From Thermoanaerobaculia bacterium (GTDB lineage: Bacteria; Acidobacteriota; Thermoanaerobaculia; UBA5066), in assembly GCA_963719225.1 (NCBI GenBank), contig CAVRAY010000001.1:1824001-1888000 (forward strand): a stretch of 64,000 bases of DNA, in the 5' to 3' direction. Positions 8,365-60,040 of this stretch are shown here, piece by piece. Under the pieces are notes generated by a model that was given only the letters and a program-made list of their open reading frames with translations, was not told where the DNA came from and ran no database searches. How positions within the stretch are numbered: position 1 is the stretch's first letter; each line of letters opens with the position of its first letter. A program made the translations under genes and the position numbers.

Positions 8365-8425
8365 GGAGGAGAAGAGAAATTATCTGTTTCGGAGGGGAGA
8401 AGAGAAGATTTCTTAGAAGGGCGAG
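8365..8425 (+). repeat. Cluster A of the dispersed AGATTTCTTAGAAGG-type motif (2 copies)
   Basis: TATCTGTTTCGGAGGGGAGAAGAG at ~8381-8404 and AGATTTCTTAGAAGG at 8406-8420, in the divergent purA/hutH region. Confidence 0.7.
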
Positions 8426-8487
8426 TGTTGGCGAAGCGATGGTGGCGCCGGGGCGGTGACTCGGGGCCGATGCGAGAATGAAGCATC

Positions 8488-10008
8488 GTGGCTCGCGTCA
8501 TCGAACTGGACGGGGACTCTCTCTCACTCGAAGATCTTTACGCCGTGTCCCGCGGCGAGATGTCCGCGGCGCTCGCGCCGCGCGCCGCGGCGCGCGTGGA
8601 TGCGGCGCGGGCCGTCGTCGATCGTGCGGTCGCGGAGAACCGCGTCGTCTACGGCGTCACGACGGGTTTCGGGAAGTTCGCCGACGTCGTCATTCCGAGG
8701 GAGAAGCTCGGGCCCCTTCAGCTGAACCTCGTGCGCAGCCACGCGGCCGGGACGGGCGCGCCGCTTTCCGCTCAGGCCGTCCGGGCGGTCATGCTGCTGC
8801 GCGCGAACTGCCTCGCGAAGGGTTTCTCCGGCGTCCGCAGGCAGACACTCGAGCTTCTCCTCGCGTGCCTCGCGAAGGGAATCCATCCCGTCATTCCCGA
8901 GCAAGGCTCGGTCGGCGCGTCGGGAGACCTCGCGCCTCTCGCGCATCTGGCGCTCGCGCTCGTCGGAGAGGGGGAAGCGGACCGGGACGGAAGACGCCTG
9001 CCGGCCGCGGAGGCGCTCCGGGCGGCGGGCCTCGAACCGGCCGTGCTCGAGGCGAAGGAAGGGCTCGCGCTCATCAACGGCACGCAGCTCACGACGGCGA
9101 TCGGCGCGCTCGCGCTCCATCGCACGCTGCGGCTTCTCAAGGCCGCCGATCTCGTCGCCGCGCTCACGCTGGACTGCCTGAAGGGCACCGACGCCGCGTT
9201 CGACCCGCGCATACACGCGGCCCGCCCGCATCCCGGACAGGTCGCGTCGGCGGAGAATCTCCGTACGCTCCTCGCGAACTCGCCGCTCCGCGAGAGCCAC
9301 CGCGACTGCGGCCTCGTGCAGGACGCCTATGCGCTCCGATGCATCCCGCAGGTCCACGGCGCGGCGCGCGACGCCGCGGCGCACGCGCGGCGCGTGATCG
9401 AAATCGAGATGAACGCCGCGACCGACAACCCGATGGTCTTCGCCGAGACGGGCACTCTCGTCTCGGGGGGGAACTTCCACGCGGCGCCCGTCGCGCTCGT
9501 GTGCGACCTGCTCACGACTTCCGCGGCCGACATGGCGTCGCTTTCGGAGCGCCGGACGGAGCGGCTCGTGAATCCCGCTCTTTCCGGGGACCTGCCGGCG
9601 TTTCTCACGCGCGACGGCGGCCTGAACTCCGGACTCATGATGATTCACGTCACCGCCGCCTCGCTCGTGTCCGAGGCGAAGTCGAGCTCCTTCCCGGCCT
9701 CCGTGGACTCGATCCCGACGTCGGCCGGAAAGGAAGACCACGTCTCGATGGGCCCGATCGCTGCCCGAAAGTTCGCGAAGAACGTCGACCTCTTCGAGAC
9801 CGTCCTCGCGATCGAGCTCCTCGCGGCGGCTCAGGCGCTGGACCTCAGGCGCCCGCTGAGGACCTCGGCGACGCTCGAGGAGCTGCATCGCCTCGTGCGC
9901 GCCCGCGTGCCCTTCTGGGACACCGATCGCCACGCGGCTCCCGCGATCGAAGGTGCGCGGGCCGTTCTGGCCGGCGACCTCGACGCCCTTCTCGCGCCGC
10001 TCCTCTGA
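8488..10008 (+). CDS. hutH: Histidine ammonia-lyase
   Basis: VYGVTTGFG, SHAAG, MIO-forming GSVGASGDLAPLAH, KEGLALING, QDAYALRC, SGGNFH and EDHVSM. Confidence 0.97.
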   Translation: MARVIELDGDSLSLEDLYAVSRGEMSAALAPRAAARVDAARAVVDRAVAENRVVYGVTTGFGKFADVVIPREKLGPLQLNLVRSHAAGTGAPLSAQAVRAVMLLRANCLAKGFSGVRRQTLELLLACLAKGIHPVIPEQGSVGASGDLAPLAHLALALVGEGEADRDGRRLPAAEALRAAGLEPAVLEAKEGLALINGTQLTTAIGALALHRTLRLLKAADLVAALTLDCLKGTDAAFDPRIHAARPHPGQVASAENLRTLLANSPLRESHRDCGLVQDAYALRCIPQVHGAARDAAAHARRVIEIEMNAATDNPMVFAETGTLVSGGNFHAAPVALVCDLLTTSAADMASLSERRTERLVNPALSGDLPAFLTRDGGLNSGLMMIHVTAASLVSEAKSSSFPASVDSIPTSAGKEDHVSMGPIAARKFAKNVDLFETVLAIELLAAAQALDLRRPLRTSATLEELHRLVRARVPFWDTDRHAAPAIEGARAVLAGDLDALLAPLL

Positions 10009-10009
10009 C

Positions 10010-10798
10010 TCAAGCGCCCGAGCTGGTTGCCGCGAGGTAGCGGCGTGGAGTCGAGCCGAGCTCGCGCCTGAACATCGCGATGAAGGCGCTCGGGCTGTCG
10101 TAGCCCACCTCGAACGCAACGTTCGTCACTTTCTTCCCCTCGGCCATCAGCTCGACTGCCCGGGCCAGGCGCGCGCGCTGCCGCCATTTTTCGAACGTGA
10201 GGCCGGTTTCGGAGAGGAAGAGGCGCTGCAGGGTACGCGCGCTCGCGCCGGCCGAGCGGCCGACCCGTTCGAGCGGTTGACGCGTGCCGGTGCCCGTGGA
10301 GACGAAACGCGCCGCCCGCAGGGCGCGCGGGTCCCGAGGCAGCGGGAGCTGCAGCGGCACGACCTCGATGGCGCGGAGCTGATCCAGGAGGAGCGCGACC
10401 GCGCGCGCGTCGGAAACCAGAAAGGGGTCGAGCGCCGCAGCCTTCGACACGTACAGGATGAGCTCCCGAAGGAGCGCCGACACGTTCATCACGCGGCATT
10501 GACGGGGCAGGCGCCGGGAGAGGGGCGGCCGGAAGTAGAGGACCCGGAGGCTTCCGCCCGCCTTGATCTCCACGCGATGCCGAACGCCCGAGGGGATCCA
10601 CAGGGCGCGGTGCGGCGGGACCATCCACTCGACGAGGCGTGTCGTGACGCGCACGCCGCCGCGAGATGCGTATACGAGTCTGTCCCAGTCGCTCACGAGA
10701 TCGTTCAGCGCGCCGCCGGTCGGAAACGAGACGGACATGCAACGGATGGGAGGCTCGCCCTCTGCGACGCGAAACCCGGTCTGACGTGTTCTCGACAT
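10010..10798 (-). CDS. AraC family transcriptional regulator
   Basis: Cupin-like N-terminus (WMVPPHRALWIPSG) and C-terminal HTH pair (SARTLQRLF...VAFEVGYDSPSAFIAMFRRELG). Start at ATG 10798 assumed. Confidence 0.92.
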   Translation of the reverse strand: MSRTRQTGFRVAEGEPPIRCMSVSFPTGGALNDLVSDWDRLVYASRGGVRVTTRLVEWMVPPHRALWIPSGVRHRVEIKAGGSLRVLYFRPPLSRRLPRQCRVMNVSALLRELILYVSKAAALDPFLVSDARAVALLLDQLRAIEVVPLQLPLPRDPRALRAARFVSTGTGTRQPLERVGRSAGASARTLQRLFLSETGLTFEKWRQRARLARAVELMAEGKKVTNVAFEVGYDSPSAFIAMFRRELGSTPRRYLAATSSGA

Positions 10799-10865
10799 TA
10801 TCTGACACTTTAGCGCAAGCCTGACGGCGCTCCAGTGCGTATCTTTCGCGGGGCAGGAGGTCACG

Positions 10866-11823: not shown

Positions 11824-13794
11824 TCAGCTCACGAGCGCCGACGCCAGCGCGCCGGGCAGCTCGTCCGTAGGCACGTCCAGCTCCGGAAGGGCGAGCGCGG
11901 GAAGCGCGGCGAGCGCCCGGGAAAGCCTCGTCGCAGCCGTCTGGCGCTCTGTCACGCGGTTCAGGATGAGGCCGGGCGCGGCGCCGCGGCGGGCGAGGCC
12001 GGCAGCGAGCTCCGCCGAGGTCGCGAGAGCCGAGAAGTCCATCGTCGTCGCGACGAGGAACCGGCCCCCCGACAGGAGCTTCGCCGCCTCGCGGCTCCTC
12101 TCCTTGAATCCGTCGTAGAGGCCGTCGAAAGCCCGGAAGAAGTCGGCGAGGTCCGCGAGAAAGCCGAGGCCCAGGACGCGGTCCGCGGCACGCAGCAGGG
12201 CCGCGCCGCCGCGCGACGCCTCGGAAAGAGCGCGACCGAAGAAGCCGTCGCGCCGCAGGAAGAACCGCAGGGCGTCGTTCTCGAGGAGCGTGACCATCCG
12301 CTCGGGCGCCGAGAGGAAATCGAGGCCGCGCGCCGCGGGAGGCGTGTCGAGGACGAGGAGGTCGACGTCTGGATCGGCCGCGTGCTCGTGCAGCGCCTCG
12401 ACTCCCATGTACTCGAGGACGCCCGGTAACGAATCCACGAGCCCGGAATAGAGCCGGTTCTCGTGAATCCGATCGAATGTCTCGCGGTTCGCCGTGCGCC
12501 GGAGAAGGCGCTCGAACGTGGCTTTCGGGTCGATCTGGAGCGCGAGAAGTCGTCCCCCCTTCGGGAGGCCGGGGACGTTCACCTCGGTGGGGCGGGTGGA
12601 GCGCGCGTCCCGGGCGGAAAGGCCCAGGGCCTGAGCCAGGCGGCGGGCGGGATCGACGGTGAGGACGAGGGCGCTCCGCCCGCGGCGCGCGGCCGCCAGG
12701 CCGAGAGCGGCCGCGAGCGTCGTCTTCCCGACGCCCCCCGGTCCGGTGAGGACGATCAGCTTCTCCCGGTCGAGCGCGGGAATCAGATCCAGAGTCTTCG
12801 ACCCGGGGAAAGGAGACGAGAGAAATTCTTTGCTTTCCCGAGCGGAGGCGCGGACGGTGCGCTTCGGGCGGCCTTCCCGCGTTGGCTCTGCCGCATTTTC
12901 TTCGAAGGTGCTGAGGAACGCGGAAAAAAACCGCGAAGCCTGCGCGGCGACCTGGCCGTTTCTCTCGTTCTCCTCTTCCTCTTCACCTTTCAAGGAATCT
13001 TTTCGGTGCTCTTCGGACGTTTCAACGTCGATCTCCGGAACCTCGATCAGAAGGATCGTCGTGTCCCTCTTGAGCAGAATCTCTTCTCTTCCTCCTCGTC
13101 CGACCCGATTGAGGACGACGAGAGCGGTCGTCAGATCCGCCTTCTCGCGAGCGCCGGCGATGAGCTCCTCGGTCTCCTTCGCCGCGAAGTCCTCGGGCTC
13201 GGACACCACGACGAGCGCGGCGTCCTTCGGATCGGAAAGAAGCGTGTCGAGCCATTCGGCCAGCTTCCGCACGGGCCCCGCGGGGACCGTGCCGAGCAGG
13301 GTGCGGGGGAGGGCGACGAGGGAGAGCGCATGTCCGGTCGCCGGGGCGTCCAGGACGACGAGGTCGACTTTCGGCGCGCCTCGCGACGCCTTTTTCCGTT
13401 TGAAGATTTCGCGGATCTTCCCCAGGAGAAGGAGGTCGGGGAGGCCCGGCGTCGCTCGCGTGAAGAACCGGAATGCGGGGACTGCGAGAAGCCGGTCGCC
13501 GAGGATCTTGACCGGCGACACGGACTCCACGAAGTCGGCGAGGAGGGCGTCGAAGTCCGCCGTGAGGCCGTGAAGGCGCGGGGCCAGCTCCATCTCGCGG
13601 TAGCCGGCGTGGCGCTTCCCGAAGAGGGTCGCGGCATCGCCGCGGCCGTCCGTGGAGACGAGAAGCACCGTCCGTCCGGCGTCCGCGGCCAGCTTCGCGA
13701 GCGTGGCCGCGACCGTCGTCTTCCCGACGCCTCCCTTGCCGGAGACCACGAGAAGGCGCCGGGAGAACAGAGTCTCGAAAATGGGCGATCGCAC
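11824..13794 (-). CDS. Fused double-domain ArsA/Get3-related ATPase
   Basis: Domain 1 has SGKGGVGKTT and LDAPATGH; domain 2 has TGPGGVGKTT, TVDPARRLAQALG and LDTPP. They are joined by a charged linker. Start GTG 13794 assumed. Confidence 0.85.
   Translation of the reverse strand: MRSPIFETLFSRRLLVVSGKGGVGKTTVAATLAKLAADAGRTVLLVSTDGRGDAATLFGKRHAGYREMELAPRLHGLTADFDALLADFVESVSPVKILGDRLLAVPAFRFFTRATPGLPDLLLLGKIREIFKRKKASRGAPKVDLVVLDAPATGHALSLVALPRTLLGTVPAGPVRKLAEWLDTLLSDPKDAALVVVSEPEDFAAKETEELIAGAREKADLTTALVVLNRVGRGGREEILLKRDTTILLIEVPEIDVETSEEHRKDSLKGEEEEENERNGQVAAQASRFFSAFLSTFEENAAEPTREGRPKRTVRASARESKEFLSSPFPGSKTLDLIPALDREKLIVLTGPGGVGKTTLAAALGLAAARRGRSALVLTVDPARRLAQALGLSARDARSTRPTEVNVPGLPKGGRLLALQIDPKATFERLLRRTANRETFDRIHENRLYSGLVDSLPGVLEYMGVEALHEHAADPDVDLLVLDTPPAARGLDFLSAPERMVTLLENDALRFFLRRDGFFGRALSEASRGGAALLRAADRVLGLGFLADLADFFRAFDGLYDGFKERSREAAKLLSGGRFLVATTMDFSALATSAELAAGLARRGAAPGLILNRVTERQTAATRLSRALAALPALALPELDVPTDELPGALASALVS
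12895..13090. repeat. Cluster B of the dispersed motif, inside the ArsA-like gene near the interdomain linker
   Basis: Forward ATTTTCTTCGAAGGTG at 12895-12910; reverse AGATTCCTTGAAAGGTGAAGAG at 13000-12979; reverse AAGAGAAGAGATTCTGCTCAAGAGGGA at 13090-13064. Confidence 0.65.
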
Positions 13795-24100: not shown

Positions 24101-25039
24101 GATCGGCTGCTTCCGGGCGGCAGCCTGGCCGAGCGGCTCGCCGGCGCCCGGTGGGTCGCTCTCCGATCGGCTCTCGAAGAGGCGATGATGCGCCCGTCGC
24201 CGTACGAGACGCGCGTGACGATTCCGGGGCCGTCGGGTGAGCGGTTCTTCCGCGTGGCGATCGTGACGCTCCCTGGAGAGGAGCGCGCCCCTCGCGTGAT
24301 CCTTCTGCTCGAAGACCTCACTGATTTTCTTCGCGCCGACAGGCTCGCCGCGTGGGTCGACGCCGCCCGCTCGATCGCCCATGACATCAAGAACCCCCTG
24401 ACGCCGATCCGGCTCGCGGCCGAGCGCCTCCGGCGCTTCGAGGTCAAGCGCGAAGCGCCGCCGACGGGGGCGATCGGAGAGGTCGCGGCGGGAATCCTCC
24501 GGCAGGTCGGAATCCTCACGGATCGGATCGGCCGCCTCGGGCGGTTCGGCGATCCTGCGGTGGTCGAGCGGCGCGTTCTGGCGCGCGCAGACGTCGCCCG
24601 CCTCCTCGACGAGGTCGCCGCCGACTTCCGGGCGCACGAAACGCTCGCGATCGAGACCGAGACGGATCCGGCCCTTCAGCCCTTCGCAGCAGACCCCTTT
24701 CTCGTCCGCGACGCGCTGACGAACTTCGTCGTGAACGCGGTCGAGGCCATCGGGACCGCGCGAGGCCGCGTCCGACTCTCCGCCCGAAACGCGGCGCTCG
24801 ACTCCGGCGAGGCCGCCGTGCGCTTCACGTGCGAGGACGACGGCCCGGGCGTCCCGGAAGACGTCGCGGGGAGGCTCTTCGAGCCCACGTTTTCGACGAA
24901 GTCCCGCGGGTCGGGGATGGGCCTCGCGGCCGTGCGACGGGCGGCGGAGCATCACCTGGGAACGGTGTTCGCGCATGCGCGCTCCGGCGGCGGGCTCGTC
25001 GTGGGCTTCACGCTCCCCGCGCTATCATCCCCTTCGTGA
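21161..25039 (+). CDS. Large multi-TM sensor histidine kinase (NtrY-like core)
   Basis: Many TM segments, a HAMP/PAS-like region, H-box AHDIKNPLTPI, N-box NFVVNAVEA, G1 EDDGPG, F-box FEPTFSTK and G2 GSGMGL. Confidence 0.9.
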   Translation: MPRARRTAVFWLFAAALGALGLSLAARLAPAGGAARDARAALFLGSAERSLERDAETLRRTAGRIHAGREFAAIADGGGAEVRPAKLFSILGESLPKGPGWGAVFFDRTSRPVAWAGEAAGLEAERGPATSGYVTSFHVTRVFLGYVAPRGERGARGTLVVTRRYPTGILRPDLIEFLALEEGPTRLRMRVTASERRDRLLALSLESSEPGLANEDVRRARAFRPALLLAFLTIALGWAARHPVAGFVAARWALLLGTPLGASGAFAVGWNPPFLLGLFGTPADAFLSGLAALVLARSFMGRARGRPGGPYGLLLAIPVALAPGLLGRAAALLAPGSFDTMSLIPPGLPDFFVQTGLLALAAAVLACASLLPKPGAARRSRIATALGLAALVAALAFAGSPLHLLFLILASVALTFALARRVRPSVRTDLLSRAATAVFVVAASTLLFAAGLADGRLRRVDAAIARAEVLARRDGAAVRAESVRRWERRVASPSLEPWLPAGERTQRDDLARALWARGADESFPELGDTLTIRSPGGATMSSFGVIRPGRRTQDLVSPAVIPAAFPAEFRHVPWPREPERDPLLSAVASRDVPDRVAVERLEWDAAGRATGSRGDGIEMPDRILGRARRSGEAVETLSTPDGLRRVHVRTAATGFTGFGAPAETNLAVAGAAVAAGEAALVILVPILFVGMPALGVAWRFPRRFFATFRARLVALVLVFGALPLALSVVFVRIALEGHASGETARRSRDVVSEGRRLLEGDAAGGALSPEAALNRAAAVVGWDLLRYRDGTLVAASRALPVAAEVARERLASPIAQELAEGRPSAFAARGALASGGPRVVEAAEAVSGDGREALAVVVAEDEAVRSAADALLLLSVAVALAAVGLGGRAALALGEPLEELIAATANVGEGRPLPPLIRPANVDLARLVDAFTEMSARVEERTESLAQERASALGLLGNLTAAVLLFRRGDGTVLLANPAADRLLPGGSLAERLAGARWVALRSALEEAMMRPSPYETRVTIPGPSGERFFRVAIVTLPGEERAPRVILLLEDLTDFLRADRLAAWVDAARSIAHDIKNPLTPIRLAAERLRRFEVKREAPPTGAIGEVAAGILRQVGILTDRIGRLGRFGDPAVVERRVLARADVARLLDEVAADFRAHETLAIETETDPALQPFAADPFLVRDALTNFVVNAVEAIGTARGRVRLSARNAALDSGEAAVRFTCEDDGPGVPEDVAGRLFEPTFSTKSRGSGMGLAAVRRAAEHHLGTVFAHARSGGGLVVGFTLPALSSPS

Positions 25040-32376: not shown

Positions 32377-32565
32377 AGAGAAGAAAGAAAGTTTTGTTTC
32401 GGAAAAGAGAAGAGAAGAAAGAATTGCTTAGAAGGTGAATAGGGCTTCGGATTCGCCGTCGCGGTTCGTGGTTGGTCTGAGCGGCCCCCAGCTCTCGGAT
32501 TCGGAGCGCACATTGCTCGTTGCGCTTCGGCCGCTCGGCATCTTTCTTTCTAAGCAGAATCTCCA
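32373..32565. repeat. Cluster C of the dispersed motif (mutS/nagZ junction and nagZ 5' end)
   Basis: Forward GTTTTGTTTCGGAAAAGAGAAGAG at 32391-32414 and AGAATTGCTTAGAAGGTGAAT at 32420-32440; reverse AGATTCTGCTTAGAAA at 32562-32547. Confidence 0.7.
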
Positions 32566-33511
32566 AACTCCCTCACAGAGTGCGTCGCTGCTGGAGGCGT
32601 TGAGACGGTTGTATTTCCCCGCGCCCCTCCTCTTCATCTCCCAGGAAGGCGGGAGCGAGGATCCCATCGGGCCGCTTCTCGGAACCCCGTGCGCGTCGGC
32701 CGCTGCGTGCGCGGCGGCGGGGACGGACCGCGTGCACGAGAACGCGTACCTCATGGGGCGCGCCGCGCGGCTCCTGGGCTTCGACGTGAATCTGGCTCCG
32801 GTGCTGGACCTTGCGCAGCCGGGCACGGGCGCCGTCGTCCTCGAAGGACGTTGCTTCGGCTTTCACGCCGAGGACGTCGTGCTCTCGGGGATGATGTTCC
32901 TGCACGGGCTCGCGCGCGCGGGCCTCGCGACCGCGGTGAAGCATTTTCCCGGGCTCGGCCGTGCGGGGATGGACACCCGTGTCGCGCGGCCCGCCGTGGA
33001 TGCCCACGACGTGGACCTCATGGTGACCGACGTCGCGCCCTTCACGAAGCTCGCACGGGGCGCGGACGCCGTCGTCGTGGGGCACGCGGCATACCCCGGC
33101 TTCACGGGTGATGACACCCCCGCGTCCCTTTCACCGAAGCTCCTTGGGATCCTGCGCGGTGCCGTCCGCTTCGAGGGCGTCTCGCTCGCGGACGACCTCG
33201 TGAAGGGCGCCCTCGAGGGGACGCTTCCGGAGCGTGCAGAGCGGGCCGCCCGGGCCGGCTGCGACGCGCTCATCGTCTCGACAGGCAGCGATGCGTGGGA
33301 AGAGTGTGCCGCGCGCGTCGCCGCCCTCGGCGAGGACCCCGCGCGCGACGCCCGCTTCGCGACTCTCCGCCGCCGTGTCGCGGACGCACCGCGTCCGCGG
33401 TTCGACGAAGAGGCGTGGAAGAAGCTGGCAGAGGAGGCCGCTGCCTTCAGTGAACTGCTCAGCAAGCCGAGAAAAAAGAGAGAAGAGAAGGATCTATTCG
33501 GATTTTCTTAG
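32435..33511 (+). CDS. GH3 beta-N-acetylhexosaminidase (NagZ-like), atypical active site
   Basis: QEGG, GFDVNLAPVLD, KHFPGLG, PASLS, ADDL and AGCD. Confidence 0.8.
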   Translation: MNRASDSPSRFVVGLSGPQLSDSERTLLVALRPLGIFLSKQNLQTPSQSASLLEALRRLYFPAPLLFISQEGGSEDPIGPLLGTPCASAAACAAAGTDRVHENAYLMGRAARLLGFDVNLAPVLDLAQPGTGAVVLEGRCFGFHAEDVVLSGMMFLHGLARAGLATAVKHFPGLGRAGMDTRVARPAVDAHDVDLMVTDVAPFTKLARGADAVVVGHAAYPGFTGDDTPASLSPKLLGILRGAVRFEGVSLADDLVKGALEGTLPERAERAARAGCDALIVSTGSDAWEECAARVAALGEDPARDARFATLRRRVADAPRPRFDEEAWKKLAEEAAAFSELLSKPRKKREEKDLFGFS

Positions 33512-33572
33512 AAAGGGGTTTTCCTCTTCACCTCCTAAGAAATCTTTTCTTAATCTTCTCTTTCTCTTCGTC
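33470..33572. repeat. Cluster D of the dispersed motif (convergent pair between nagZ-like and ssb)
   Basis: Forward GATTTTCTTAGAAAGGGG at 33501-33518; reverse AGATTTCTTAGGAGGTGAAGAG at 33545-33524. Each has its own purine-rich leader. Confidence 0.72.
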
Positions 33573-33574
33573 TT

Positions 33575-34006
33575 CTAGAACGGCACGTCGTCGTCGGCAT
33601 CGCCGCCGCCCGCTGCGGCGTCCGGCACCGCCGGCGTCGAAGCGCCGGAGGTGCCGCCGGCATCGGGGCGGCCGCCCAGCATCTTCATGTCGCGCGCCTT
33701 GATCTCGGTGGCGTAGCGCTTCTGGCCGCTCTCCTTGTCGTCCCACGTGCGCGTCTGGAGCGCGCCTTCGATGTAGACGAGGCGGCCCTTCGACAGGTAC
33801 CGCTCGCAGATGCTCGCGAGCTTGTCGAACGCGATGACCGTGTGCCACTCGGTCTTCTCCTGCTTCTGTCCGCTCGCGCGGTCGTTCCACGTTTCCGTCG
33901 TGGCGATGCGCAGCCGCGCGATGGGCACTCCGCCAGTGGTGGCGCGCATTTCCGGGTCGGCCCCGAGGTGGCCGATGAGGATCACCTTGTTCACGGATCC
34001 AGCCAT
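33575..34006 (-). CDS. ssb: Single-stranded DNA-binding protein
   Basis: SVNKVILIGHLGADPE, EKTEWH, VYIEGALQTRTW and C-terminal DDDVPF. Confidence 0.97.
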   Translation of the reverse strand: MAGSVNKVILIGHLGADPEMRATTGGVPIARLRIATTETWNDRASGQKQEKTEWHTVIAFDKLASICERYLSKGRLVYIEGALQTRTWDDKESGQKRYATEIKARDMKMLGGRPDAGGTSGASTPAVPDAAAGGGDADDDVPF

Positions 34007-34046
34007 GTCCGTCCTCCGATCGTTCGGATCCTACAATCGGTCCGGT

Positions 34047-38340: not shown

Positions 38341-38679
38341 TCAGGAGGGCGTGCCGGAGGGGGGCGGCCCGGGGGGCGCGGATTTCACGGCCGGCTCGTC
38401 GGGTGGGCCGGTCATGTCGCGCAGCTCCTTGCCCGGCTTGAACCGGATCGTGAAGCCGGGGGGAATCTGCACTTCCTCGGTGGGACGTTTCGGGTTGCGG
38501 CCGATGCCGCGTTTTCTCGGCTTGACCAGGAACACGCCGAACCCGCGCAGCTCGATGCGCTCGCCGCGTGACAGCGCCTGGCGCAGCACGTCGATGATCG
38601 TCTCGACGGCTTGCGTCGCCTTCTGGCGCCCGACGCCGGCCGCTTCCGCGACCGCATTGATGATGTCGTTCTTGATCAC
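38341..38679 (-). CDS. HU/IHF family DNA-binding protein
   Basis: MIKNDII, GERIELRGFGVF, GRNPK and FKPGKEL. Confidence 0.92.
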   Translation of the reverse strand: MIKNDIINAVAEAAGVGRQKATQAVETIIDVLRQALSRGERIELRGFGVFLVKPRKRGIGRNPKRPTEEVQIPPGFTIRFKPGKELRDMTGPPDEPAVKSAPPGPPPSGTPS

Positions 38680-43728: not shown

Positions 43729-45336
43729 TTGACGAAGCCCCGGCAGCTCGGCCGCGTGCTCGTCGCGAACCGCGGCGAGATCGCCGTGCGCGTGATCCGC
43801 GCCTGCCGGGCTGCGGGCCTGCCCGCGGTCGCGGTTTTCTCCGACGCGGATCGCGGCGCGCGCCACGTCGCGCTCGCGGATGCGGCGGTGCACGTCGGTC
43901 CCGCGCCCGCGCGGGAATCGTACCTTTCGATTCCGCGCCTCCTCGCCGCCGCCCGCGAGGCGGGCTGCGGCGCCGTGCATCCCGGCTACGGATTCCTCTC
44001 GGAGAACGCGGATTTCGGGCGTGCGGTCGAGGAGGCCGGGCTGATCTGGATCGGCCCGCCGCCCGCGGCGATGGAGGCGATGGGATCGAAGATTTCTGCG
44101 AGAGAAAGAATGAGGGCGGCTGGAGTTCCGGTGGTTCCGGGCGCGCTCATCGAGATGTTCGAAGAGAACGAAGAGAACGAAGAGAAAGAGAAGAAGAAGA
44201 TTTCTTTGAATGGTGAAGAGGCTGGGGACAGGGCCGGCGCGCGTCGAGCGGCGCCGCCGCGCCCCGCAACCTCTGGCACCCTCGAAGAAATCCCCTCTTC
44301 CGTTCTCTCCCTCGGTTTCCCGGTCGTCGTCAAAGCGTCCGCGGGAGGCGGCGGGAAGGGCATGCGTATCGTTCGCGACGCCTCTTCTCTTTCCGAAGCA
44401 ATATCTTCCTGCCGGCGCGAAGCGCTCGCCGCGTTCGGCGATGCGACGGTCTACGTGGAAAAGTACCTGCCTGCTCCCCGCCACATCGAAGTGCAGATCT
44501 TCGGCGACACGTTCGGGAACGTCGTCGCGCTCGGCGAGCGTGAGTGCTCGCTCCAGAGGCGGCACCAGAAGGTGATCGAGGAATGTCCGTCGCCGGCCGT
44601 GACGCCGGAGCTGCGCGCCCGCCTTCAGAAGGTCGCCTGCGACGCCGCGCGCGCGGTGGGCTATGTGAACGCGGGGACGGTCGAGTTCCTGCTCGAGCCC
44701 TCCGGCACGTTCTATTTCCTCGAGATGAACTCGCGCCTTCAGGTGGAGCATCCGGTCACGGAAGAGGCTTTCGGCGTGGACCTCGTGGCGTTGCAGCTAC
44801 GGATCGCGGCGGGCGAGAAGCTGCCCGAGCTTCCCTCCGCTCCCGCGGCGCATGCGATCGAGGCGCGCGTCTACGCGGAGGATCCCGACGCGGGATTCCT
44901 TCCGCAGGCGGGTCGTCTCCTGACCTGGATCGAGCCCTCGGGCCCGGGCGTGCGCGTGGACTCCGGCGTGGCGGCCGGCCAGCTGGTGGACATTCACTAC
45001 GACCCGCTCCTCGCCAAGATCGTCGCGAAGGGGAAGGACCGCGAAGAAGCGCGTACCCGGCTCGTCGCCGCGCTCCGCGAAACGGTCGCCCTCGGCGTGA
45101 CGACCAACCTCTCGTGGCTCGTGCGCCTGCTCGAGGCCGCTCCGGTCGTCCGCGGCGAGCTCCACACGGCCCTCGTCGAGTCGCTCGCGCTTCCCGCCCC
45201 CGGGCCTCCCCCGGACGAGGTCTTCGAGGTCGCTTCGGCGCTTCTCACGCGCGCCGCGCCCGAGGCGGGAGGACTCTCCGCGCGCCACGCGTTTCCGAGC
45301 CCGTTCGAAGAGCGGTTTCGGATGGGCGGCGCGTGA
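43729..45336 (+). CDS. liuD: Biotin carboxylase subunit (MCC alpha), with an in-frame insertion
   Basis: VLVANRGEIAVR, HPGYGFLSEN, KASAGGGGKGMR, ERECSLQRRHQK and FLEMNSRLQVEHPVTE. Confidence 0.9.
   Translation: MTKPRQLGRVLVANRGEIAVRVIRACRAAGLPAVAVFSDADRGARHVALADAAVHVGPAPARESYLSIPRLLAAAREAGCGAVHPGYGFLSENADFGRAVEEAGLIWIGPPPAAMEAMGSKISARERMRAAGVPVVPGALIEMFEENEENEEKEKKKISLNGEEAGDRAGARRAAPPRPATSGTLEEIPSSVLSLGFPVVVKASAGGGGKGMRIVRDASSLSEAISSCRREALAAFGDATVYVEKYLPAPRHIEVQIFGDTFGNVVALGERECSLQRRHQKVIEECPSPAVTPELRARLQKVACDAARAVGYVNAGTVEFLLEPSGTFYFLEMNSRLQVEHPVTEEAFGVDLVALQLRIAAGEKLPELPSAPAAHAIEARVYAEDPDAGFLPQAGRLLTWIEPSGPGVRVDSGVAAGQLVDIHYDPLLAKIVAKGKDREEARTRLVAALRETVALGVTTNLSWLVRLLEAAPVVRGELHTALVESLALPAPGPPPDEVFEVASALLTRAAPEAGGLSARHAFPSPFEERFRMGGA
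44088..44406. repeat. Cluster E of the dispersed motif, inside the biotin carboxylase gene
   Basis: Forward AGATTTCTTTGAATGGTGAAGAG at 44198-44220, preceded by (GAAGAGAAC)2GAAGAGAAA; reverse GATTTCTTCGAGG at 44292-44280; reverse AGATATTGCTTCGGAAAGAGAAGAG at 44406-44382. Confidence 0.72.
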
Positions 45337-47908: not shown

Positions 47909-50577
<2,669 letters not shown>

Positions 50578-51376: not shown

Positions 51377-52159
51377 GTGAGCGAAATCGAAGCGGCGGGC
51401 ACCCCGTCCCCGGCCGACTCCGGCCTCGACGAGGCGGGATACGCGACGAGGATCGAGGACGCGTTCATCGCCGAGCGCGGCACGCCGTTCCTCGTTTCGG
51501 CGAAAGACTGGAGTCTGATTCGCGGCTGGCGGGAAGCGGGGGTCCCCGTCGACACCGTCGTCCGGGCCGTGCGCGAGACCTTCGAAAAGCGCCGCGCGCG
51601 CGGCCAGGTCGGGAAGATCTCCTCGCTCGCCTACTGTGCGGACGCGGTCGCCGAACGGTGGGAGATGGAACGCCGCGGCCTCGTCGGCAAGGACGATCGG
51701 GCCCCCGCGGCCGCGGACGCGGCCGCGATCGGCGAAGAGCTCGCGAAGCTCGCCGCCGCGCTTCGCGCGACGGGAGAAGAGGGGAAGAAAGATTTGCTTC
51801 GGAAAGGGAGAGAGGGGGAACCGGGCGCTACGAGCGGTGGCGAAGCACCGGGATTCGATCTGGAAGTTCTTAGAAGGGGGTTGGATCGAGCGGCGGCCCA
51901 GATCGAGGAGGTCTCGGCTGATCTTCCCTTCGAAGAAATCGAGCACAAGCTTTCGTCTATCGAGTCCTCTCTCGTGCGAGCGGGTCTGAAAGCAATGAAT
52001 TCGTTTTCTAAGTCTCTGGTCGAGGCGCGCGTGAACGAGGCTTTGGGCAATGTCGCTGGCCTCGCGCCCCACGTCGTCGAGCGCATGCGCAAGGCGCTCA
52101 CGCGCCGCGAGGTGCGGTCCCTTGCCGGCTTCCCCCCGCTGACGCTCCTCCATGGCTGA
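51377..52159 (+). CDS. Hypothetical protein, N-terminus reminiscent of DnaD-like helical domains
   Basis: IEDAFIAERG...SAKDWSLIRGWREAGVP...ISSLAYC; lies between birA and rlmD and overlaps rlmD. Confidence 0.65.
   Translation: MSEIEAAGTPSPADSGLDEAGYATRIEDAFIAERGTPFLVSAKDWSLIRGWREAGVPVDTVVRAVRETFEKRRARGQVGKISSLAYCADAVAERWEMERRGLVGKDDRAPAAADAAAIGEELAKLAAALRATGEEGKKDLLRKGREGEPGATSGGEAPGFDLEVLRRGLDRAAAQIEEVSADLPFEEIEHKLSSIESSLVRAGLKAMNSFSKSLVEARVNEALGNVAGLAPHVVERMRKALTRREVRSLAGFPPLTLLHG
51775..51940. repeat. Cluster F of the dispersed motif, inside the 51377 ORF
   Basis: Forward AGATTTGCTTCGGAAAGGGAGAGAG at 51790-51814 and AAGTTCTTAGAAGGGGG at 51864-51880; reverse GATTTCTTCGAAGGGAAG at 51940-51923. 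Confidence 0.68.
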
Positions 52160-53486
52160 GATCCGCCCCGGCGATCGCGTCGAGGTCGTGATCGAGCGCG
52201 TCGTGCCGGGCGGCGACGGGCTGGCGCGCCTCTCCGGCGTCGTGACCCTCGTGCCCGGAGCGTTGCCGGGCGACCGCGTGCGCCTTCGGGTGGGCGCTGC
52301 CTCGGATCGTCTCGTGCGCGGCGACCTGGAAGAGGTGCTCGTGTCCGGTGAGGCGCGCCGGCCGGGAGTCGAGATGTGCCCGAGGGCCCTCGACGGCTCC
52401 TGCGGCGGGTGCGACTGGCCGGCCGCGCGCCTCGAGTCTCACCGGGAGCTCAAGACGGCGCTCGTCCTCGATGCGCTCCGGCGGCTTGCGGGACTCCTGC
52501 CGGAAGATCTCCCCGAGCCGCGCTGGCTCGGGTCCCCGCGAAACTACCGCCTCAGAAACCGGCTTCATCTCGATCGCCGGGGAAACCTGGGATTCTTCGC
52601 GTCGCGCTCGAACGCCGTCTCGAACCTCGAGACGTGCGAGATCGTCTCGAACGCGCTGCTCGCGCGACTGCCCGCGATCCGCGATCACGTGCGCGGATTC
52701 GGACCGATGGAAGGGGAGCTCTGGACGCTGGAAGACCGCTCGGGGGGCACGCTGCTCGCCGAGTTGCGCCTCGGCGCGGGTGAGGGTCTGCAAATTTCTT
52801 CGAAGGTGAAGGAGAGGGGGAGGGGGCCGTTCGACGGGTTTCGACTCCTCGATGCGAGCGGCCGGGTGCTTCTTTCCGACGGACCCTCGTCTCTGGCGAT
52901 CGCGGCGGGCGGAGCCTCGTTCGACGTCTCCGTCTCCTCTTTCTTTCAAGGAAATCTGTATCTTCTCGACGCTTTTCTCGAAGAGATTCGGACCGCGCTC
53001 CGCGCGGTGCGGCCTTTTCGCGCGGTCGACCTCTATGCGGGCGCGGGATTCCTCACGCGGCCCCTTCTGGAGCTCGCGCGCGAGGTAGGTGGGGGCGATG
53101 TGACGGCCGTCGAGATCGACCCTTCCGCGTCACATTCCCTTTCTAAGAATCTTCAAACATGGCATTCGCACGGCTATCCCCTCGCGCGCTTCGTGCTCGC
53201 CTCGGCCGAATCTTTCTTTCATTCGCAGAAAAATCCGAATTCTCCGATCGATTTGATCGTCGCCGACCCGCCGCGCGCAGGCATGTCACCGAGCGTGCGG
53301 AGCGGGATCCTGCGCCTCGCACCGCGGCATCTCCTGATGGTCTCGTGCGATCCGCCGACGCTCGCCCGAGATCTGTCGGTCCTGAAGGAGCGTTACGCCG
53401 TCGAGCGCTTGACGCTGCTCGATCTCTTCCCGCAGACGCACCACGTCGAAACGGTCGCCTTGCTCGAACGGCGCGAAGTCGGATAG
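52152..53486 (+). CDS. rlmD: 23S rRNA (uracil-5)-methyltransferase, TRAM domain
   Basis: TRAM domain with GALPGD, C...CGGC cluster motif, SFFQGN, DLYAGAG, DPPRAG, VSCDPPTLARD and DLFPQTHHVE. Confidence 0.9.
   Translation: MAEIRPGDRVEVVIERVVPGGDGLARLSGVVTLVPGALPGDRVRLRVGAASDRLVRGDLEEVLVSGEARRPGVEMCPRALDGSCGGCDWPAARLESHRELKTALVLDALRRLAGLLPEDLPEPRWLGSPRNYRLRNRLHLDRRGNLGFFASRSNAVSNLETCEIVSNALLARLPAIRDHVRGFGPMEGELWTLEDRSGGTLLAELRLGAGEGLQISSKVKERGRGPFDGFRLLDASGRVLLSDGPSSLAIAAGGASFDVSVSSFFQGNLYLLDAFLEEIRTALRAVRPFRAVDLYAGAGFLTRPLLELAREVGGGDVTAVEIDPSASHSLSKNLQTWHSHGYPLARFVLASAESFFHSQKNPNSPIDLIVADPPRAGMSPSVRSGILRLAPRHLLMVSCDPPTLARDLSVLKERYAVERLTLLDLFPQTHHVETVALLERREVG
52792..53152. repeat. Cluster G of the dispersed motif, inside rlmD
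   Basis: Forward AAATTTCTTCGAAGGTGAAGGAGAG at 52792-52816; reverse AGATTTCCTTGAAAGAAAGAG at 52957-52937; reverse AGATTCTTAGAAAGGGAA at 53152-53135. Confidence 0.68.
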
Positions 53487-53495: not shown

Positions 53496-55919
53496 ATGCG
53501 CGCGTCGTGGTCGAGAGAAGCCGGAGCCCCGTCGCTCCCCTTGGCGGGTGCTCTGGCTGCGGGGATCGTCGCGGCCGTCATCCTCCCGATCCCGCCCTCG
53601 AGAGCGCTCGGAGTCGTCCTCGCGATCGCGTCGGCGGCCGGCGTAGCGTTCGCGGGACGGCAGAGCCGGGTCCGCGTTTTCGCCGGTCTTGTTCTCGCCG
53701 TCGCCGCCGGATACTGGAACGCCCGCGAGCGCTTCCTCCTTCCCGCCCAACGCAGCGCCTCCGAGGCCCGCGAAGCGCTCGTCCGCGCGCGGGCAGCCGA
53801 TCCGGCCGCCGACGGCGCCCTCGTCGAGGTCACCGGCCGCCTCGCCGCGCCCTGGACCGCGAGCGGCTCGCTTTTCCGGACGCGGCTCGCGGTCGAAGCG
53901 GCGGCAGCGGACGGCACCCTCCTGCGGCTCGAGTCCGCTCTGCCGCTCACCGTGGCGGGGCAGCAGGATCCCTCCGGCATCGCGGAGCTGGGCGACCGCG
54001 TGCGCCTGCGCGGAACGCTCCGTCTGCCTGAGGTAGGCGGTCCGTCCCGTTCGCCCTTCGACCTTCCGCCCGAGCCGCGCCTCGCGCTCAAGAGCGCCGC
54101 CCAGGTCGAGCGGCTCGGTCCGCCGGCAGGTCTCCTCTCACCCGTGGCACGCGCCCACGCGGCCGTGAAGCGGCGCCTGCGCGCGAACCTCGCCGGCGCG
54201 GCGCCGGAAGAGCGCGGGGCGCTCGCGCTCCTCCTCGCGCTCGTGATGGGGGAGACGCAGGATCTTCCCGCGGCCACCGTCAGCGCGTTCCGCGACGGAG
54301 GCGTCGCGCACATCGTCGCGATCTCCGGATTGCAGGTCGGACTCGTCGCCGCCCTTCTCGGCTGGTTCGCGCGGCGGCTCGGGGCCTCTCTTGCCGCGCG
54401 CGACGGATTCGTCCTCGTGGCGACGGCTTCGTTCGCCGTCTTCGCGGGCGGCCGGCCGCCCGTGGTGCGCGCCGCGTTGATGATCGGTCTCTATCTCCTC
54501 GCGCGTTTGCTCGGCCGTCCCACCTCGGCGACCCACGTCCTCGGCTTCGCGGCCGTCGTCCTCCTCGTCGCCGACCCTTCCGACCTCTTCGACGTCGGAT
54601 TCCTCCTCACGTTCGCGGCCGTCTTCGGCCTGACGGCGTTCGGCGTTCCCGCGGCAAGAGCGCTCCGTGCAGCCGGGCTGCCTGCCCTCGTCGCCGATGC
54701 TCTCGGCGCGACCGCCGGAGCCGAGATCGCGGTGCTCCCGATCCAGCTCTTCGTGTTCAACGTGGTGCCCGTCGTGGCGCTGCTGTCGAACCCGTTCATC
54801 GTGCCGCTCTCGAGCGTCTTCCTGTTCGCGGGCCTCTTGCTCCTCCCGCTCCTGCTCCTGTCGCCTGCGTCTGCGGCGCTCGGCATCGTGCCGCTGCGGC
54901 TCCTCTCGGACGTCCTCCTCGCGCTGCTGTCGGCGCTCGACCGGCTGCACGCGGTGAGGATCGTGCCAACCCCCGCGTTCGCGCTCGTCGCGGCCACGGC
55001 GGCGCTCCTCATCGTCGCGGGTCTCGCGCGGCGCACCGGGCTGCGGCGCTCGGCATTCGCCGGCGCCGCGAGTCTCGCGCTCGCGGTCGTCCTCTCCCGT
55101 CCGGTGGTTGCCGAGCGAGGCAGGGTCGTGCTCCAGGCGTTCGACGTGGGTCAGGGGGACGCGTGGCTCCTCGTCACACCCGAGGGACGCGTCCTCGTGG
55201 ACGGCGGCGGGAGTCCCGACCGGGCATACGACTTCGGTCGCCTCCGGCTCGTGCCGCGCCTGACGGACGTCGGAGCAGTGGCGTTCGATGCGGTCGTGCT
55301 GACGCATCCGCACCCGGACCACGCGCGGGGGCTTCTCGCCGTTCTCACGTCGCTCCCGGTCGCGCACGTCGTCCTGCCCCGGGCGGCGCCCCGCAACCTC
55401 TTCCTGGACGAGTTCGAGGACGCGGCCGCGCGCCGGCACCTGGTGCTGGAGCGCTTCGGCGCCGGCCAGCGCTTCACGGCGGCGGGCCTGTCCTTCGACG
55501 TGCTGCACCCGGGGGACGCGCCCTACCCGCGCGCGCGGGAGAACAACGGATCGCTCGTGCTGCGTGTGACGCTCGCGGGGCGCAGCGTGCTCCTTTCCGG
55601 CGACATCGAGGCCCTTGCCGAGAGCGACCTGGTCTCGTCGGACCGGAACCTTTCGGCCGACGTCCTGAAAGTCCCGCATCACGGGAGCAGGACGTCCACC
55701 TCGGCGGCGTTCCTCGCGCGCGTCGCTCCCCGGCTCGGCCTGATCGGCGTGGGTCGCCGGAACCACTTCGGCCATCCGGCGGCCGACGTCGTCGCCCGCC
55801 TCGCGGCCGCGGGAGTCCGGACGTTCCGGACCGATCGCGACGGTGAGGTCGCCCTTCTGTTCGAAGGGGGCCGCATCCTTCCGGTCTTTCCCGAGAGCGT
55901 CGCGCGGGAGGTGCCGTGA
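53496..55919 (+). CDS. comEC: DNA internalization competence protein ComEC/Rec2
   Basis: GVAHIVAISGLQV, VVRAALM, GFLLTF, then metallo-beta-lactamase motifs DVGQGDA, THPHPDH and KVPHHGS. Confidence 0.93.
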   Translation: MRASWSREAGAPSLPLAGALAAGIVAAVILPIPPSRALGVVLAIASAAGVAFAGRQSRVRVFAGLVLAVAAGYWNARERFLLPAQRSASEAREALVRARAADPAADGALVEVTGRLAAPWTASGSLFRTRLAVEAAAADGTLLRLESALPLTVAGQQDPSGIAELGDRVRLRGTLRLPEVGGPSRSPFDLPPEPRLALKSAAQVERLGPPAGLLSPVARAHAAVKRRLRANLAGAAPEERGALALLLALVMGETQDLPAATVSAFRDGGVAHIVAISGLQVGLVAALLGWFARRLGASLAARDGFVLVATASFAVFAGGRPPVVRAALMIGLYLLARLLGRPTSATHVLGFAAVVLLVADPSDLFDVGFLLTFAAVFGLTAFGVPAARALRAAGLPALVADALGATAGAEIAVLPIQLFVFNVVPVVALLSNPFIVPLSSVFLFAGLLLLPLLLLSPASAALGIVPLRLLSDVLLALLSALDRLHAVRIVPTPAFALVAATAALLIVAGLARRTGLRRSAFAGAASLALAVVLSRPVVAERGRVVLQAFDVGQGDAWLLVTPEGRVLVDGGGSPDRAYDFGRLRLVPRLTDVGAVAFDAVVLTHPHPDHARGLLAVLTSLPVAHVVLPRAAPRNLFLDEFEDAAARRHLVLERFGAGQRFTAAGLSFDVLHPGDAPYPRARENNGSLVLRVTLAGRSVLLSGDIEALAESDLVSSDRNLSADVLKVPHHGSRTSTSAAFLARVAPRLGLIGVGRRNHFGHPAADVVARLAAAGVRTFRTDRDGEVALLFEGGRILPVFPESVAREVP

Positions 55920-58869: not shown

Positions 58870-58882
58870 GGACACCCGGTCG

Positions 58883-59473
58883 ATGGAGCTGCGCCCCTGG
58901 ACGCTGCCGAACTTCCTGACGTTCGCGCGGCTTGCCTCCCTCCCGTTTCTCATCATGGCGATCCTCGGCGGCCGGCACGGTGTCGCCCTTGCCATCTTCC
59001 TCGCGGCCGCGATTACCGACGTCGTGGACGGATACGTGGCCCGCCGGTTCGGCATGGGCTCGCCGCTGGGGGCCTGGCTCGACCCCATCGTCGACAAGTT
59101 CTTCCTCGTCTCGACGTTCGTCGTCTTCGCGCTGCCTTCCACCCCGACGTCCCTTCACATTCCGGTCTGGCTCCTCGTGCTCACGGTCTTTCGTGACGCG
59201 TTCGCCCTTGCGATCTGCCTCGTCATGTTCCTGGCTCTCGGCATCAAGGATTTCCCGCCCTCGGCCCTCGGAAAGCTCACGACCTTCCTCGAGATCGCGA
59301 CGGTGGTCGCGATCCTGCTCGTGAACGTCCATCGGCTGCCCGTCGTCGTTGCGACGACCTGCATGCAGCTCGTGGCGATCTTCGCGACGGTGTCGGGCCT
59401 TCATTACTCGTGGCGCATCGTGACGCGCCTCCCGCGTCCGGCTGCGGCAGCCCCGCCTTCGCCGCCCGCGTGA
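58883..59473 (+). CDS. CDP-alcohol phosphatidyltransferase (PgsA/cardiolipin synthase-like)
   Basis: LPNFLTFAR and TDVVDGYVARR...LGAWLDPIVDK. Confidence 0.9.
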   Translation: MELRPWTLPNFLTFARLASLPFLIMAILGGRHGVALAIFLAAAITDVVDGYVARRFGMGSPLGAWLDPIVDKFFLVSTFVVFALPSTPTSLHIPVWLLVLTVFRDAFALAICLVMFLALGIKDFPPSALGKLTTFLEIATVVAILLVNVHRLPVVVATTCMQLVAIFATVSGLHYSWRIVTRLPRPAAAAPPSPPA

Positions 59474-59742
59474 GACTGTTCCGCCGGTCGACAGCGGCCG
59501 AGCCTCCCGCGCTCCGGCTTCTCTCGCGCAGCGGCTGCCATCTGTGCGACGAGATGAGGGCGGTCGTCGGGCCGCTCGTTCGCGCGCGCGGCGGCACGCT
59601 CGAGGTCGTGGACGTGGATGCCGATCCGGCTCTTGCCCGGAGGTGGGGGAATGAGATCCCGGTCGTCCTCGACGCCGAGGGCCGCGTCGTGGCGAAGGCT
59701 CGCGATTCGGCGGCGAAGGTCAGCCGCCGCCTCGGAGGCTGA
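59470..59742 (+). CDS. Glutaredoxin-like protein (DUF836 type)
   Basis: SRSGCHLCDEM...VDVDADP...EIPV; GTG at 59470 overlaps the upstream stop. Confidence 0.85.
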   Translation: MRLFRRSTAAEPPALRLLSRSGCHLCDEMRAVVGPLVRARGGTLEVVDVDADPALARRWGNEIPVVLDAEGRVVAKARDSAAKVSRRLGG

Positions 59743-59749
59743 TCGCAAC

Positions 59750-59965
59750 CAAGAAAAAAGAAAGAGGAGCCCGAGGGGCGCCGGTTCCCCCGGACTCCGG
59801 TGCACCCCGCGAGGGGCCTGCCGGCGGCGGAATGGCTTTGCGCGTGCTGTGCGCTGGTCCTGGGCGGCTCTCCCGGAAACCCGGGGCCTCGGAGCTGCGT
59901 TGCGGACCTTGCCTGGTGCCTTTCCGGCCGACCCCGCCGTGTTTTCCGGCGCGCGGGGCTGACTA
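59750..59965 (-). ncRNA. Candidate structured non-coding RNA (unassigned)
   Basis: About 210 nt with several hairpins in a convergent intergenic gap; TTGACT-17-TACTGA promoter-like signal upstream on the minus strand; GC-rich stem and U-tract at the 3' end. Confidence 0.3.
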
Positions 59966-59994
59966 ATCAGTAGGGCCTGAATTGCCCGGAGTCA

Positions 59995-60040
59995 AGAGGA
60001 GAAGAGAGAAGAAAAAAAGATTTCTTAGAAGGTGAATATT
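59995..60040 (+). repeat. Cluster H of the dispersed motif
   Basis: Purine run followed by AGATTTCTTAGAAGGTGAAT at 60018-60037; the first 15 nt are identical to the copy at 8406. Confidence 0.72.

Follow-up and report, generated by a model that had tools for sequence, protein, structure and literature searches.

A 64,000-nucleotide stretch of DNA from a Thermoanaerobaculia bacterium (assembly GCA_963719225.1, contig CAVRAY010000001.1, positions 1,824,001 to 1,888,000; "the window" below means this whole stretch) carries a polar DNA motif that recurs hundreds of times in the 4.75-Mb genome, within genes as well as between them. Its sites mostly face one another in inward-pointing pairs across unrelated spacers, are characteristic of a single genus, and are concentrated around the replication terminus. 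We hold with moderate confidence that they are selected paired sites and represent the predicted binding site of a chromosome-structuring protein, either specific to this genus or retuned in it.

The motif has the core TTTCTT(A/C)GAA(G/A)G(G/T)GAA and a purine tract on its outer side that reaches 25–35 bp. The whole site is polar and ~40 bp long (about 35–45 bp), longer than the ~20 bp given in a preliminary description of the window. In the purine tract, autocorrelation peaked at 6 and 12, intergenic flanks included, and the ratio at 7 was 0.99. Searching the 4.75-Mb genome with an iterated matrix, we found 817 sites above 14 bits compared with 84 for the reversed matrix, and 605 compared with 16 above 20 bits. 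The top 10-mer of the genome, TTCTAAGAAA, had 197 copies, while an order-4 model expected 1.1. In the window, TTCTTMGAARG with at most one mismatch was matched 16 times, compared with 2.8 ± 1.8 matches in 100 shuffles, none of which reached 16. Window sites were called with the matrix trained on the whole genome at a cut-off of 10 bits; the 22 sites obtained agree in number with the preliminary description, which had counted about 20 copies. An assembly artefact, which that description had left as a possibility, is excluded because the motif occurs in 24/24 independently assembled genomes of the genus and its orthologous positions are conserved.

Using gene calls made for this analysis (4239 genes, 91% coding), we found 568 of the 817 sites (70%) in genes, 291 in sense and 277 in antisense orientation and in all frames; the 249 intergenic sites represent three times the intergenic share of the genome. 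In five shuffles of synonymous codons within genes, 52–69 sites remained compared with 552 observed, i.e. the observed number was 8–10 times the null, and sites with a convergent partner in genes fell from 180 to 2–4. The enrichment therefore stands against the codon-preserving null that had been proposed as a check. Because the sites occupy all frames and both strands about equally, exceed this null, and were in part gained by purely synonymous change, the motif is a DNA-level signal independent of protein sequence, as first supposed. Low-complexity patches rich in E/K or S/F in such proteins reflect the DNA signal, not protein function. Site density decreased with protein identity to the sister genus G082, from 64 per 100 kb at 50–60% identity to 3 per 100 kb above 80%.

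The sites tend to face inward. Among neighbours at most 300 bp apart across the genome, 261 were convergent (+-), 34 were ++, 30 were --, and 10 were divergent (-+). Permuting the strands of the sites gave 84 ± 7 convergent neighbours and a maximum of 107 in 1000 permutations, so the inward bias reported for the window holds genome-wide. Across 104 GC-rich loci from other genomes, the bias was the same (79, 13, 8, and 3 in that order). The sites form 492 clusters, of which 201 consist of exactly one facing pair and 191 of a single site; a weak convergent partner accompanied 48 of these single sites and a weak divergent one 7. For 272 pairs, a set that omits 17 pairs at 93 bp mostly from kinase paralogues, 15 spacings were below 60 bp, 100 were 60–99 bp, 128 were 100–199 bp, and 29 were at least 200 bp. 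Spacings thus rarely fall below about 60 bp, peak at 65–100 bp, and tail off smoothly to about 300 bp; 25 of 58 intergenic pairs were spaced 65–82 bp. Helical phasing at 10–11 bp, hinted at by early spacings, was gone on the full pair set (p at least 0.085).

The DNA between the arms is unrelated from pair to pair. Only 30 of 281 spacers had another match in the genome. Ser/Thr kinase paralogues made up the largest group of these, and there both arms overwrite conserved coding sequence. No second motif was detected in the spacers, where only GC-rich words were enriched. Each arm matched its own partner at 17.59 of 35 positions and a random partner at 17.45 ± 0.15, and duplex tests gave small excesses only (z no higher than 2 for energy, with 2.8 in a single spacing class). 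Since the spacers are unrelated and the arms barely covary, the motif is probably not a miniature inverted-repeat transposable element, a repetitive extragenic palindrome (REP), or a hairpin. The spacers of 65–82-bp pairs resembled one another slightly above shuffles (32.6 vs about 26), for which GC-rich composition or faint common ancestry may account. A tandem array of about nine Ser/Thr kinase paralogues lies at G000 C1:2295000-2320000, each with a 93-bp pair whose purine tract codes for a serine-rich insertion.

To place the sites on the chromosome, we used an origin at about 330 kb on C2, where dnaA, parS, and a ParAB pair lie, and a unique dif-like site at C1 2,037,570-594, directly after a second ParAB pair. 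We take the latter to be dif on the basis of the dif consensus and of an octamer resembling FtsK-orienting polar sequences (KOPS), TGGGGGAG, which is distinct from the motif and flips there (38/10 vs 1/41). Within 1.1 Mb of dif lay 329 of the 492 clusters (density ratio 2.34, p 5e-20), and the best-fitted density step delimited C1 1.075–3.075 Mb, a 2-Mb block centred on dif. The contrast was present among genes with a G082 orthologue (26.1 vs 9.5 sites per 100 kb, terminus vs origin side) and in five of six classes of third-position GC content, being absent in the highest. Sites of at least 18 bits occurred within 200 bp of dif in 5/5 genus genomes and 0/7 outgroups, and in G000 two pairs flank dif. 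In G019, among the matches listed (100 of 133), the 0.84 Mb towards dif contained 40 exact 12-mers and the adjoining 1.11 Mb contained 20, a comparison that is not independent of synteny. Single sites showed no replichore skew (45+/51- and 42+/39-).

Two observations concern the landmarks themselves. The second chromosomal ParAB pair stands beside the dif-like site at G000 C1:2037570-2039524; two ParB genes were present in 21/21 genomes of the order tested, and linkage to dif was found in 12/12 loci read. In the 3.9-Mb genome of G019, the origin-type ParB lies only about 0.74 Mb from dif on one contig (C2:107000-847000), indicating very unequal replichores or a misassembly.

The motif is confined to a narrow taxonomic range. 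Its exact 12-mer occurred in 24/24 genomes of the same genus (21–210 copies) and in 0/16 from other families of the order. A looser 11-mer had 182–473 copies in 10/10 genus genomes and 0–51 in 140 further genomes of the class, most of them close to control, with mild elevation in G082 (30 vs 6) and G117 (34 vs 2). Among 297 genomes of the phylum outside the genus, only G247 stood out (162 vs 24), and a few others had 25–30 vs 2–8. G247 belongs to another family and was rejected as a second lineage of the motif; it shares only the 11-mer core TTCTTCGAAAG, within a different, genome-wide intergenic element of nested inverted heptamer arrays (loci L379-L408). In a scan of the whole collection, 69 of 80 among the records listed were Thermoanaerobaculia or Acidobacteriota. 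Outgroup rows include an unpublished genome, G025, on which no conclusion rests. The sister genus G082 had a single complete, strong pair (78 bp) within 380 kb near the terminus side, and near the origin 3 sites above 14 bits in 400 kb, equal to control. The origin of the motif is recent. The G082 pair, at C1:1973696-1973774 in the 3' end of rarA, is an ancestral or imported copy, and the surrounding region (C1:1743700-2123699) has other over-represented words, GCAGCAGCAG, TACGCAAGCAGC, and GCAAGGCCCAGG, suggesting a different repeat family.

Mobile DNA gave no source for the motif. Phages had 0 pair matches and 134 single-match viral loci, none with GC above 0.58. Ends of insertion sequences (IS) were also rejected as its origin: an IS110-like element and a 9-copy IS carry one motif site each, 50–90 bp inside an end, which is compatible with chance. 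Four copies of the IS110-like element accompany a short-gene array with attC-like ends at G000 C1:2196000-2211000. We found no prior description of the motif in the literature searched, outside which fell most subscription papers and supplements; in the parts available, papers containing the 11-mer had it in eukaryotic or primer contexts.

Within the genus the sites are conserved, with traces of gain. The site was kept in 105 of 173 site-by-genome comparisons (13 sites). In a 20-kb orthologous region, the site in valS was present in 16/16 genus genomes, and 0 sites were found in four outgroups of the same family. Alignments revealed two routes of gain. One was in-place substitution, which changed amino acids in valS and in rlmD consisted largely of synonymous changes to rare codons. 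The other was in-frame insertion of a site plus spacer that completed a 77–83-bp pair; such insertions, patchy among species, were seen in the biotin carboxylase gene, a 260-aa gene, and rlmD, where other sites arose in place. Gains fell at weakly constrained protein positions, and outgroup proteins were likewise more variable at site positions (0.91 vs 0.66). Third positions within 150 bp of sites had 3.1–3.3 changes per site compared with 2.3, fourfold sites in spacers and out to about 100 bp were AT-richer (0.17–0.20 vs 0.11), and gap openings were more frequent near sites (0.062 vs 0.006 per column). These faster, indel-richer flanks are explained partly by the weak constraint on the positions.

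Exchange between clades was also detected. A block of about 250 bp around the valS site had crossed clades, G013 being 91% identical there to G023 and 70% to its close relative G001. In unmasked windows, discordance was 8.2% near sites compared with 0.2–0.4%. With the motif columns masked, 44 genes gave 21 exchange events in 52.7 kb of alignment, of which 1 lay within 150 nt of a site where about 0.8 was expected, a comparison of low power; events were enriched neither near sites nor in site-bearing genes. Short tracts had been exchanged between two genus clades in murJ (window 34005-35609) and several site-free genes.

Table 1. Motif sites and selected genes in the 64-kb window.
Feature	Position	Strand	Remark
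Motif site, 21 bits, intergenic, single	3528..3553	-	matrix scan
Single motif site, 25 bits, flanked by the divergent genes for purA and histidine ammonia-lyase	8402..8427	+	
Convergent pair 12902+/12993-, 91 bp	12890..13005		within ArsA-like ATPase gene (11824-13749, -)
Weak site, 13 bits, within histidine-kinase gene	24674..24699	-	retained in 0/9 relatives
Convergent pair 32429+/32552-, 123 bp, intergenic, just past mutS stop	32417..32564		
Convergent pair 33509+/33537-, unusually close (28 bp)	33497..33549		faces ssb gene end
IHF/HU-family gene, one-residue insertion at arm tip	38341..38679	-	weak candidate reader subunit
Four sites 44098+, 44206+, 44285-, 44396-	44086..44408		within biotin carboxylase gene
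Single site in valS near codon 797	50285..50310	+	>10 bits in 16/16 genus relatives
Three sites 51799+, 51871+, 51933-	51787..51945		within 260-aa gene, no Pfam or NCBIfam match
Four sites 52800+, 52949-, 53145-, 53226-	52788..53238		within RlmD-like methyltransferase gene
comEC, above TIGR00361 cut-off	53541..55919	+	occurs in motif-less outgroups too
Strongest window site, 35 bits, intergenic, single, long purine tract from about 59993	60014..60039	+	

All six convergent clusters listed in the preliminary description are present in the window (Table 1), while its clusters at 8.4, 50.3, and 60.0 kb proved to be one site above 10 bits each, and the sites 3541(-) and, weakly, 24687(-) had been missed. 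The purine tract of the site at 8402..8427 extends back to about 8365. A glycoside hydrolase 3 gene ends at the TAG in the core of 33509+, which is its stop codon. Site 44206+ and its 79-bp spacer sit in an in-frame insertion of ~35–40 codons that is missing from outgroups and several genus members. In the RlmD-like gene, the four sites in order were retained in 14, 11, 15, and 12 of 15 relatives, and most differences of 52949- from the nearest outgroup are synonymous. The only Rfam matches were two tRNAs, with no further family; the tRNA genes lie on the minus strand at 4410-4483 and 4887-4960.

If the sites are bound by a chromosome-structuring protein, a sequence-specific protein would attach to each arm, and two facing sites would be engaged with at least about 65 bp of DNA of any sequence between them. 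The spacing floor would then correspond to two footprints, and the smooth, unphased tail would point to a pair of oriented complexes, bound independently of each other, that meet or fence off the intervening DNA; such complexes would bend, bridge, or fence it. The task may be compaction or segregation of the terminus half, judging from position, and selection for binding, rather than drive, would keep the sites. A bolder version, which we put forward only tentatively, is an orientation-coded chromosome grammar of one genus: inward pairs, an undescribed reader, and a 2-Mb terminus domain, worth rewriting and lengthening essential proteins, with a convergent-site rule at the 100-bp scale that expanded from few ancestral copies such as the sister genus has. 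Enrichment in the terminus half supports the nucleoid- or loop-protein option of the preliminary description, of which the reader protein was not found among the candidates screened.

Several results weigh against a structuring role. A third of the clusters (163 of 492) lie outside the terminus block, cluster spacing is not even (coefficient of variation 1.19), and no kb-scale period was detected (p 0.16). A rigid loop is disfavoured because phasing is lacking. Depletion in conserved genes and faster flanks also match uptake sequences as described in the accessible parts of two reports (PMC2817400; PMC2397512), and conservation alone cannot separate selection from drive. No reader protein was found among the candidates in a by-hand screen of short lists based on our own gene calls, without a whole-proteome profile, and one could easily be missed because the screen was of that kind. 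The second, terminus-linked ParB was rejected as the reader: the same recognition helix occurs in motif-less outgroups, whose dif loci have no sites. Also rejected was a helix-turn-helix (HTH)-repeat protein at C1:3836045, which is family-wide and has the same helices in motif-less relatives. Two IHF-like proteins (window 38341-38679 and G000 C1:2066464) each carry one extra residue at the tip of the DNA-contacting arm, and this insertion is likewise family-wide. Motif sites were near 1 of 12 sigma-54-like intergenic promoters, identified by consensus only, compared with an 11% background, and none was found upstream of dnaA.

The IHF-like pair is only a weak lead, and probably not the reader, because the sigma-54-like promoters and the region upstream of dnaA are without sites. 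An IHF-type dimer is asymmetric and would suit a polar site. The arm-tip insertion was absent in the other families of the class that were read, and one arm residue is R in 12/12 genus genomes and K in 6/6 family outgroups. The HTH-repeat protein (G000 C1:3836045-3836539, minus strand) is a basic protein of 164 aa with two HTH-like repeats and an AT-hook-like stretch; it was found in 15/16 genomes of the family and in 1 other among 150, with extra copies in three genus genomes. It had no Pfam match at E<0.04, and Atlas hits were under 0.9; it is possibly an undescribed nucleoid protein. Among mobilisers, Y1/RAYT (PF01797) was absent from G000 and G019 and single in G013; a reverse transcriptase was found once in G000 and not in four others including G013 and G019; no GxxExxY protein was found in 12/12 genus genomes, and none of the small nuclease genes of G000 lay between the arms of a pair. 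The four-helix gene of the genus, a single, divergent, repeat-less gene adjoining malate dehydrogenase, was rejected as mobiliser or reader, being syntenic in outgroups and without flanking sites. The second ParB, IHF-like, HTH-repeat, four-helix, RAYT, and reverse transcriptase candidates are not genus-specific. Four-helix-bundle (PF05635) and GxxExxY (PF13366) genes in G247, G258, G029, and G309 (L409-L414) are flanked by inverted 7- or 9-mer arrays.

The strongest competing explanation, unlikely in our judgement yet to be taken seriously, is a DNA uptake or self-recognition sequence maintained by molecular drive, in which site-bearing DNA, perhaps best as a looped fragment with two facing sites, would be taken up and recombined more often. 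A strong short core with long, degenerate, AT-richer flanks is also the anatomy of the uptake signal sequences (USS) of Pasteurellaceae, competence genes are present (comEC in the window, dprA in 5/5 genomes), and the genus exchanges short tracts between clades, as the 21 events show. DNA uptake sequences (DUS) and USS, in the available text of two reports, occur in hundreds of copies, many of them genic, alter tripeptides, are found preferentially in genes of low conservation, and have flanks that evolve faster (PMC2817400; PMC2397512). The present motif resembles them in its hundreds of copies, its many genic sites, its density, which falls with protein identity as for USS/DUS (PMC2817400, in part), and its flanks, which evolve faster as near DUS (PMC2397512, in part). 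However, comEC and dprA are equally present in motif-less outgroups, and enrichment at the terminus in core genes is not predicted by uptake. A single DUS suffices in Neisseria, where inverted pairs are terminators at most 21 nt apart (PMC2397512, as far as its available text goes), whereas most clusters here contain sites that face each other across more than 60 bp; in 257 of 272 pairs the arms are at least 60 bp apart, and the spacers are unrelated. Sites were not depleted (18.9 and 7.4 per 100 kb) in genes for which the sampled 0.78 of 4.2 Mb of G082 held no match, and exchange events, at low power, were not enriched near sites or in genes carrying them. Distinctly less probable is a decayed arm of a self-spreading palindromic element (REP/REPIN, a Rickettsia palindromic element, or convergent short-repeat arrays) whose mobiliser was lost or is unrecognised. 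REP/REPIN and Rickettsia palindromic elements form inverted doublets about 70–110 bp apart and are occasionally inserted in frame into proteins. Inverted doublets and occasional in-frame insertions are found here too: several pairs arrived as a site plus a 75–80-bp spacer, patchily over species, as in the earlier miniature-element option. The slight likeness of short spacers, the excess of gap openings near sites, and a small partner-matching excess in intergenic and 151–400-bp pairs (z about 2–2.8) point the same way. So do the nested arrays of G247, which contain the same 11-mer core, and the heptamer arrays of Xanthomonas, with 70 convergent pairs among 186 repeats in the accessible part of the report (PMC4692102). 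Against this explanation, and against the rest of that option, spacers are non-homologous with their few second matches mostly in kinase paralogues, arms barely covary, many gains were in place (valS and rlmD sites without any indel), 70% of sites are genic, and the mobiliser candidates were negative in the genomes given above. The GGGAATC heptamers of Xanthomonas do resemble the motif in a polar purine-rich strand facing inward, genome-wide pairs, and positions just past stop codons, but such arrays, like those around four-helix-bundle and GxxExxY genes, consist of tandem 7- or 9-mers, in Xanthomonas 89–93% intergenic and without terminus bias (PMC4692102, in part), while the present motif has a fixed core, a degenerate tract with period 6/12 and not 7, and no four-helix-bundle or GxxExxY gene flanked by its sites in the genus.

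We give little credence to the idea that the sites are hot spots of breakage, mutation, or short-tract recombination, Chi-like, from which their spread follows. The faster third positions, the AT-richer fourfold sites, the valS block moved between clades, and the unmasked discordance all suggested it; the signal was lost after masking motif columns and adding genes, and because only 1 of 21 exchange events lay near a site, at chance level, the hot-spot reading was dropped as largely refuted at such power. Single sites also lack replichore bias, and outgroup proteins are more variable at the same positions. Marginally less credible still is a role as RNA, with the pair forming a long stem that closes a 50–250-nt loop or pairing with the 3' tail of 16S rRNA. 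A facing pair does read alike on either strand, many intergenic sites lie 10–60 bp past a stop codon, and the 16S 3' end and trailer (G000 C1:905530-905560) score as a moderate site of 13.6 bits. Nevertheless, duplex energy in genes was -36.3 with the own partner and -36.1 ± 0.4 with shuffled partners, the unpaired valS site was kept in 16/16 genomes, strong single sites were 49 sense and 36 antisense, and Rfam gave no family beyond the two tRNAs. Pairing with the 16S tail and a ribosome-binding role were rejected: the C variants expected to pair more strongly with that tail were rare (1, 4, and 17 vs 243), and sites were not placed as ribosome-binding sites.

Compared with DUS/USS, HIP1, matS, parS, IHF sites, REP, and heptamer arrays, the motif fails a defining test of each. 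The matS site is a palindrome with about two dozen copies confined to the terminus. The present motif shares with matS, Noc-binding sites (NBS), and IHF sites a biased position along the chromosome, within and between genes, but differs from matS in being polar, with about 800 paired sites, only 2.3-fold enriched and with a third of clusters outside the block; this compares the sites, MatP not having been searched for. IHF sites of E. coli are enriched near Ter according to the available part of one study (PMC9221221), while canonical IHF places (sigma-54 promoters, upstream of dnaA) have no motif here. A canonical parS exists separately at the origin, and the helix of the second ParB is unchanged in motif-less outgroups, which sets the motif apart from the 16-bp palindromes parS and NBS; single sites have no strand skew flipping at the terminus, as Chi or KOPS would. 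The initial judgement that the motif is not parS, KOPS, Chi, or REP is thus borne out by the polar site, the lack of strand skew, and the unrelated spacers. HIP1 of cyanobacteria, in the accessible text of one report, is hyper-abundant, conserved inside open reading frames as well as between them, and of unknown function with a proposed nucleoid role (PMC5861425). It sets a precedent for a motif under selection in coding sequence with a suggested nucleoid role, but HIP1 is an 8-bp palindrome with 10–90-kb periodicity, unlike this polar, ~40-bp, non-periodic motif of oriented pairs in one genus.

DNA signals that can override protein sequence throughout a genome are rare. Those known to do so, uptake sequences and HIP1, whose role is still open, are single short words, and the present motif adds orientation, pairing, a minimum distance, and chromosome position. 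Its recent origin and the few copies in the sister genus make the rise of such a code traceable. The consensus, the optimum spacing, and the negative controls offer a direct handle on a new DNA-organising protein, and the terminus-linked ParAB system, beside dif in all loci read, may merit a study of its own. If the grammar reading is true, these common, uncultured soil bacteria would possess a bacterial convergent-site rule at the 100-bp scale.

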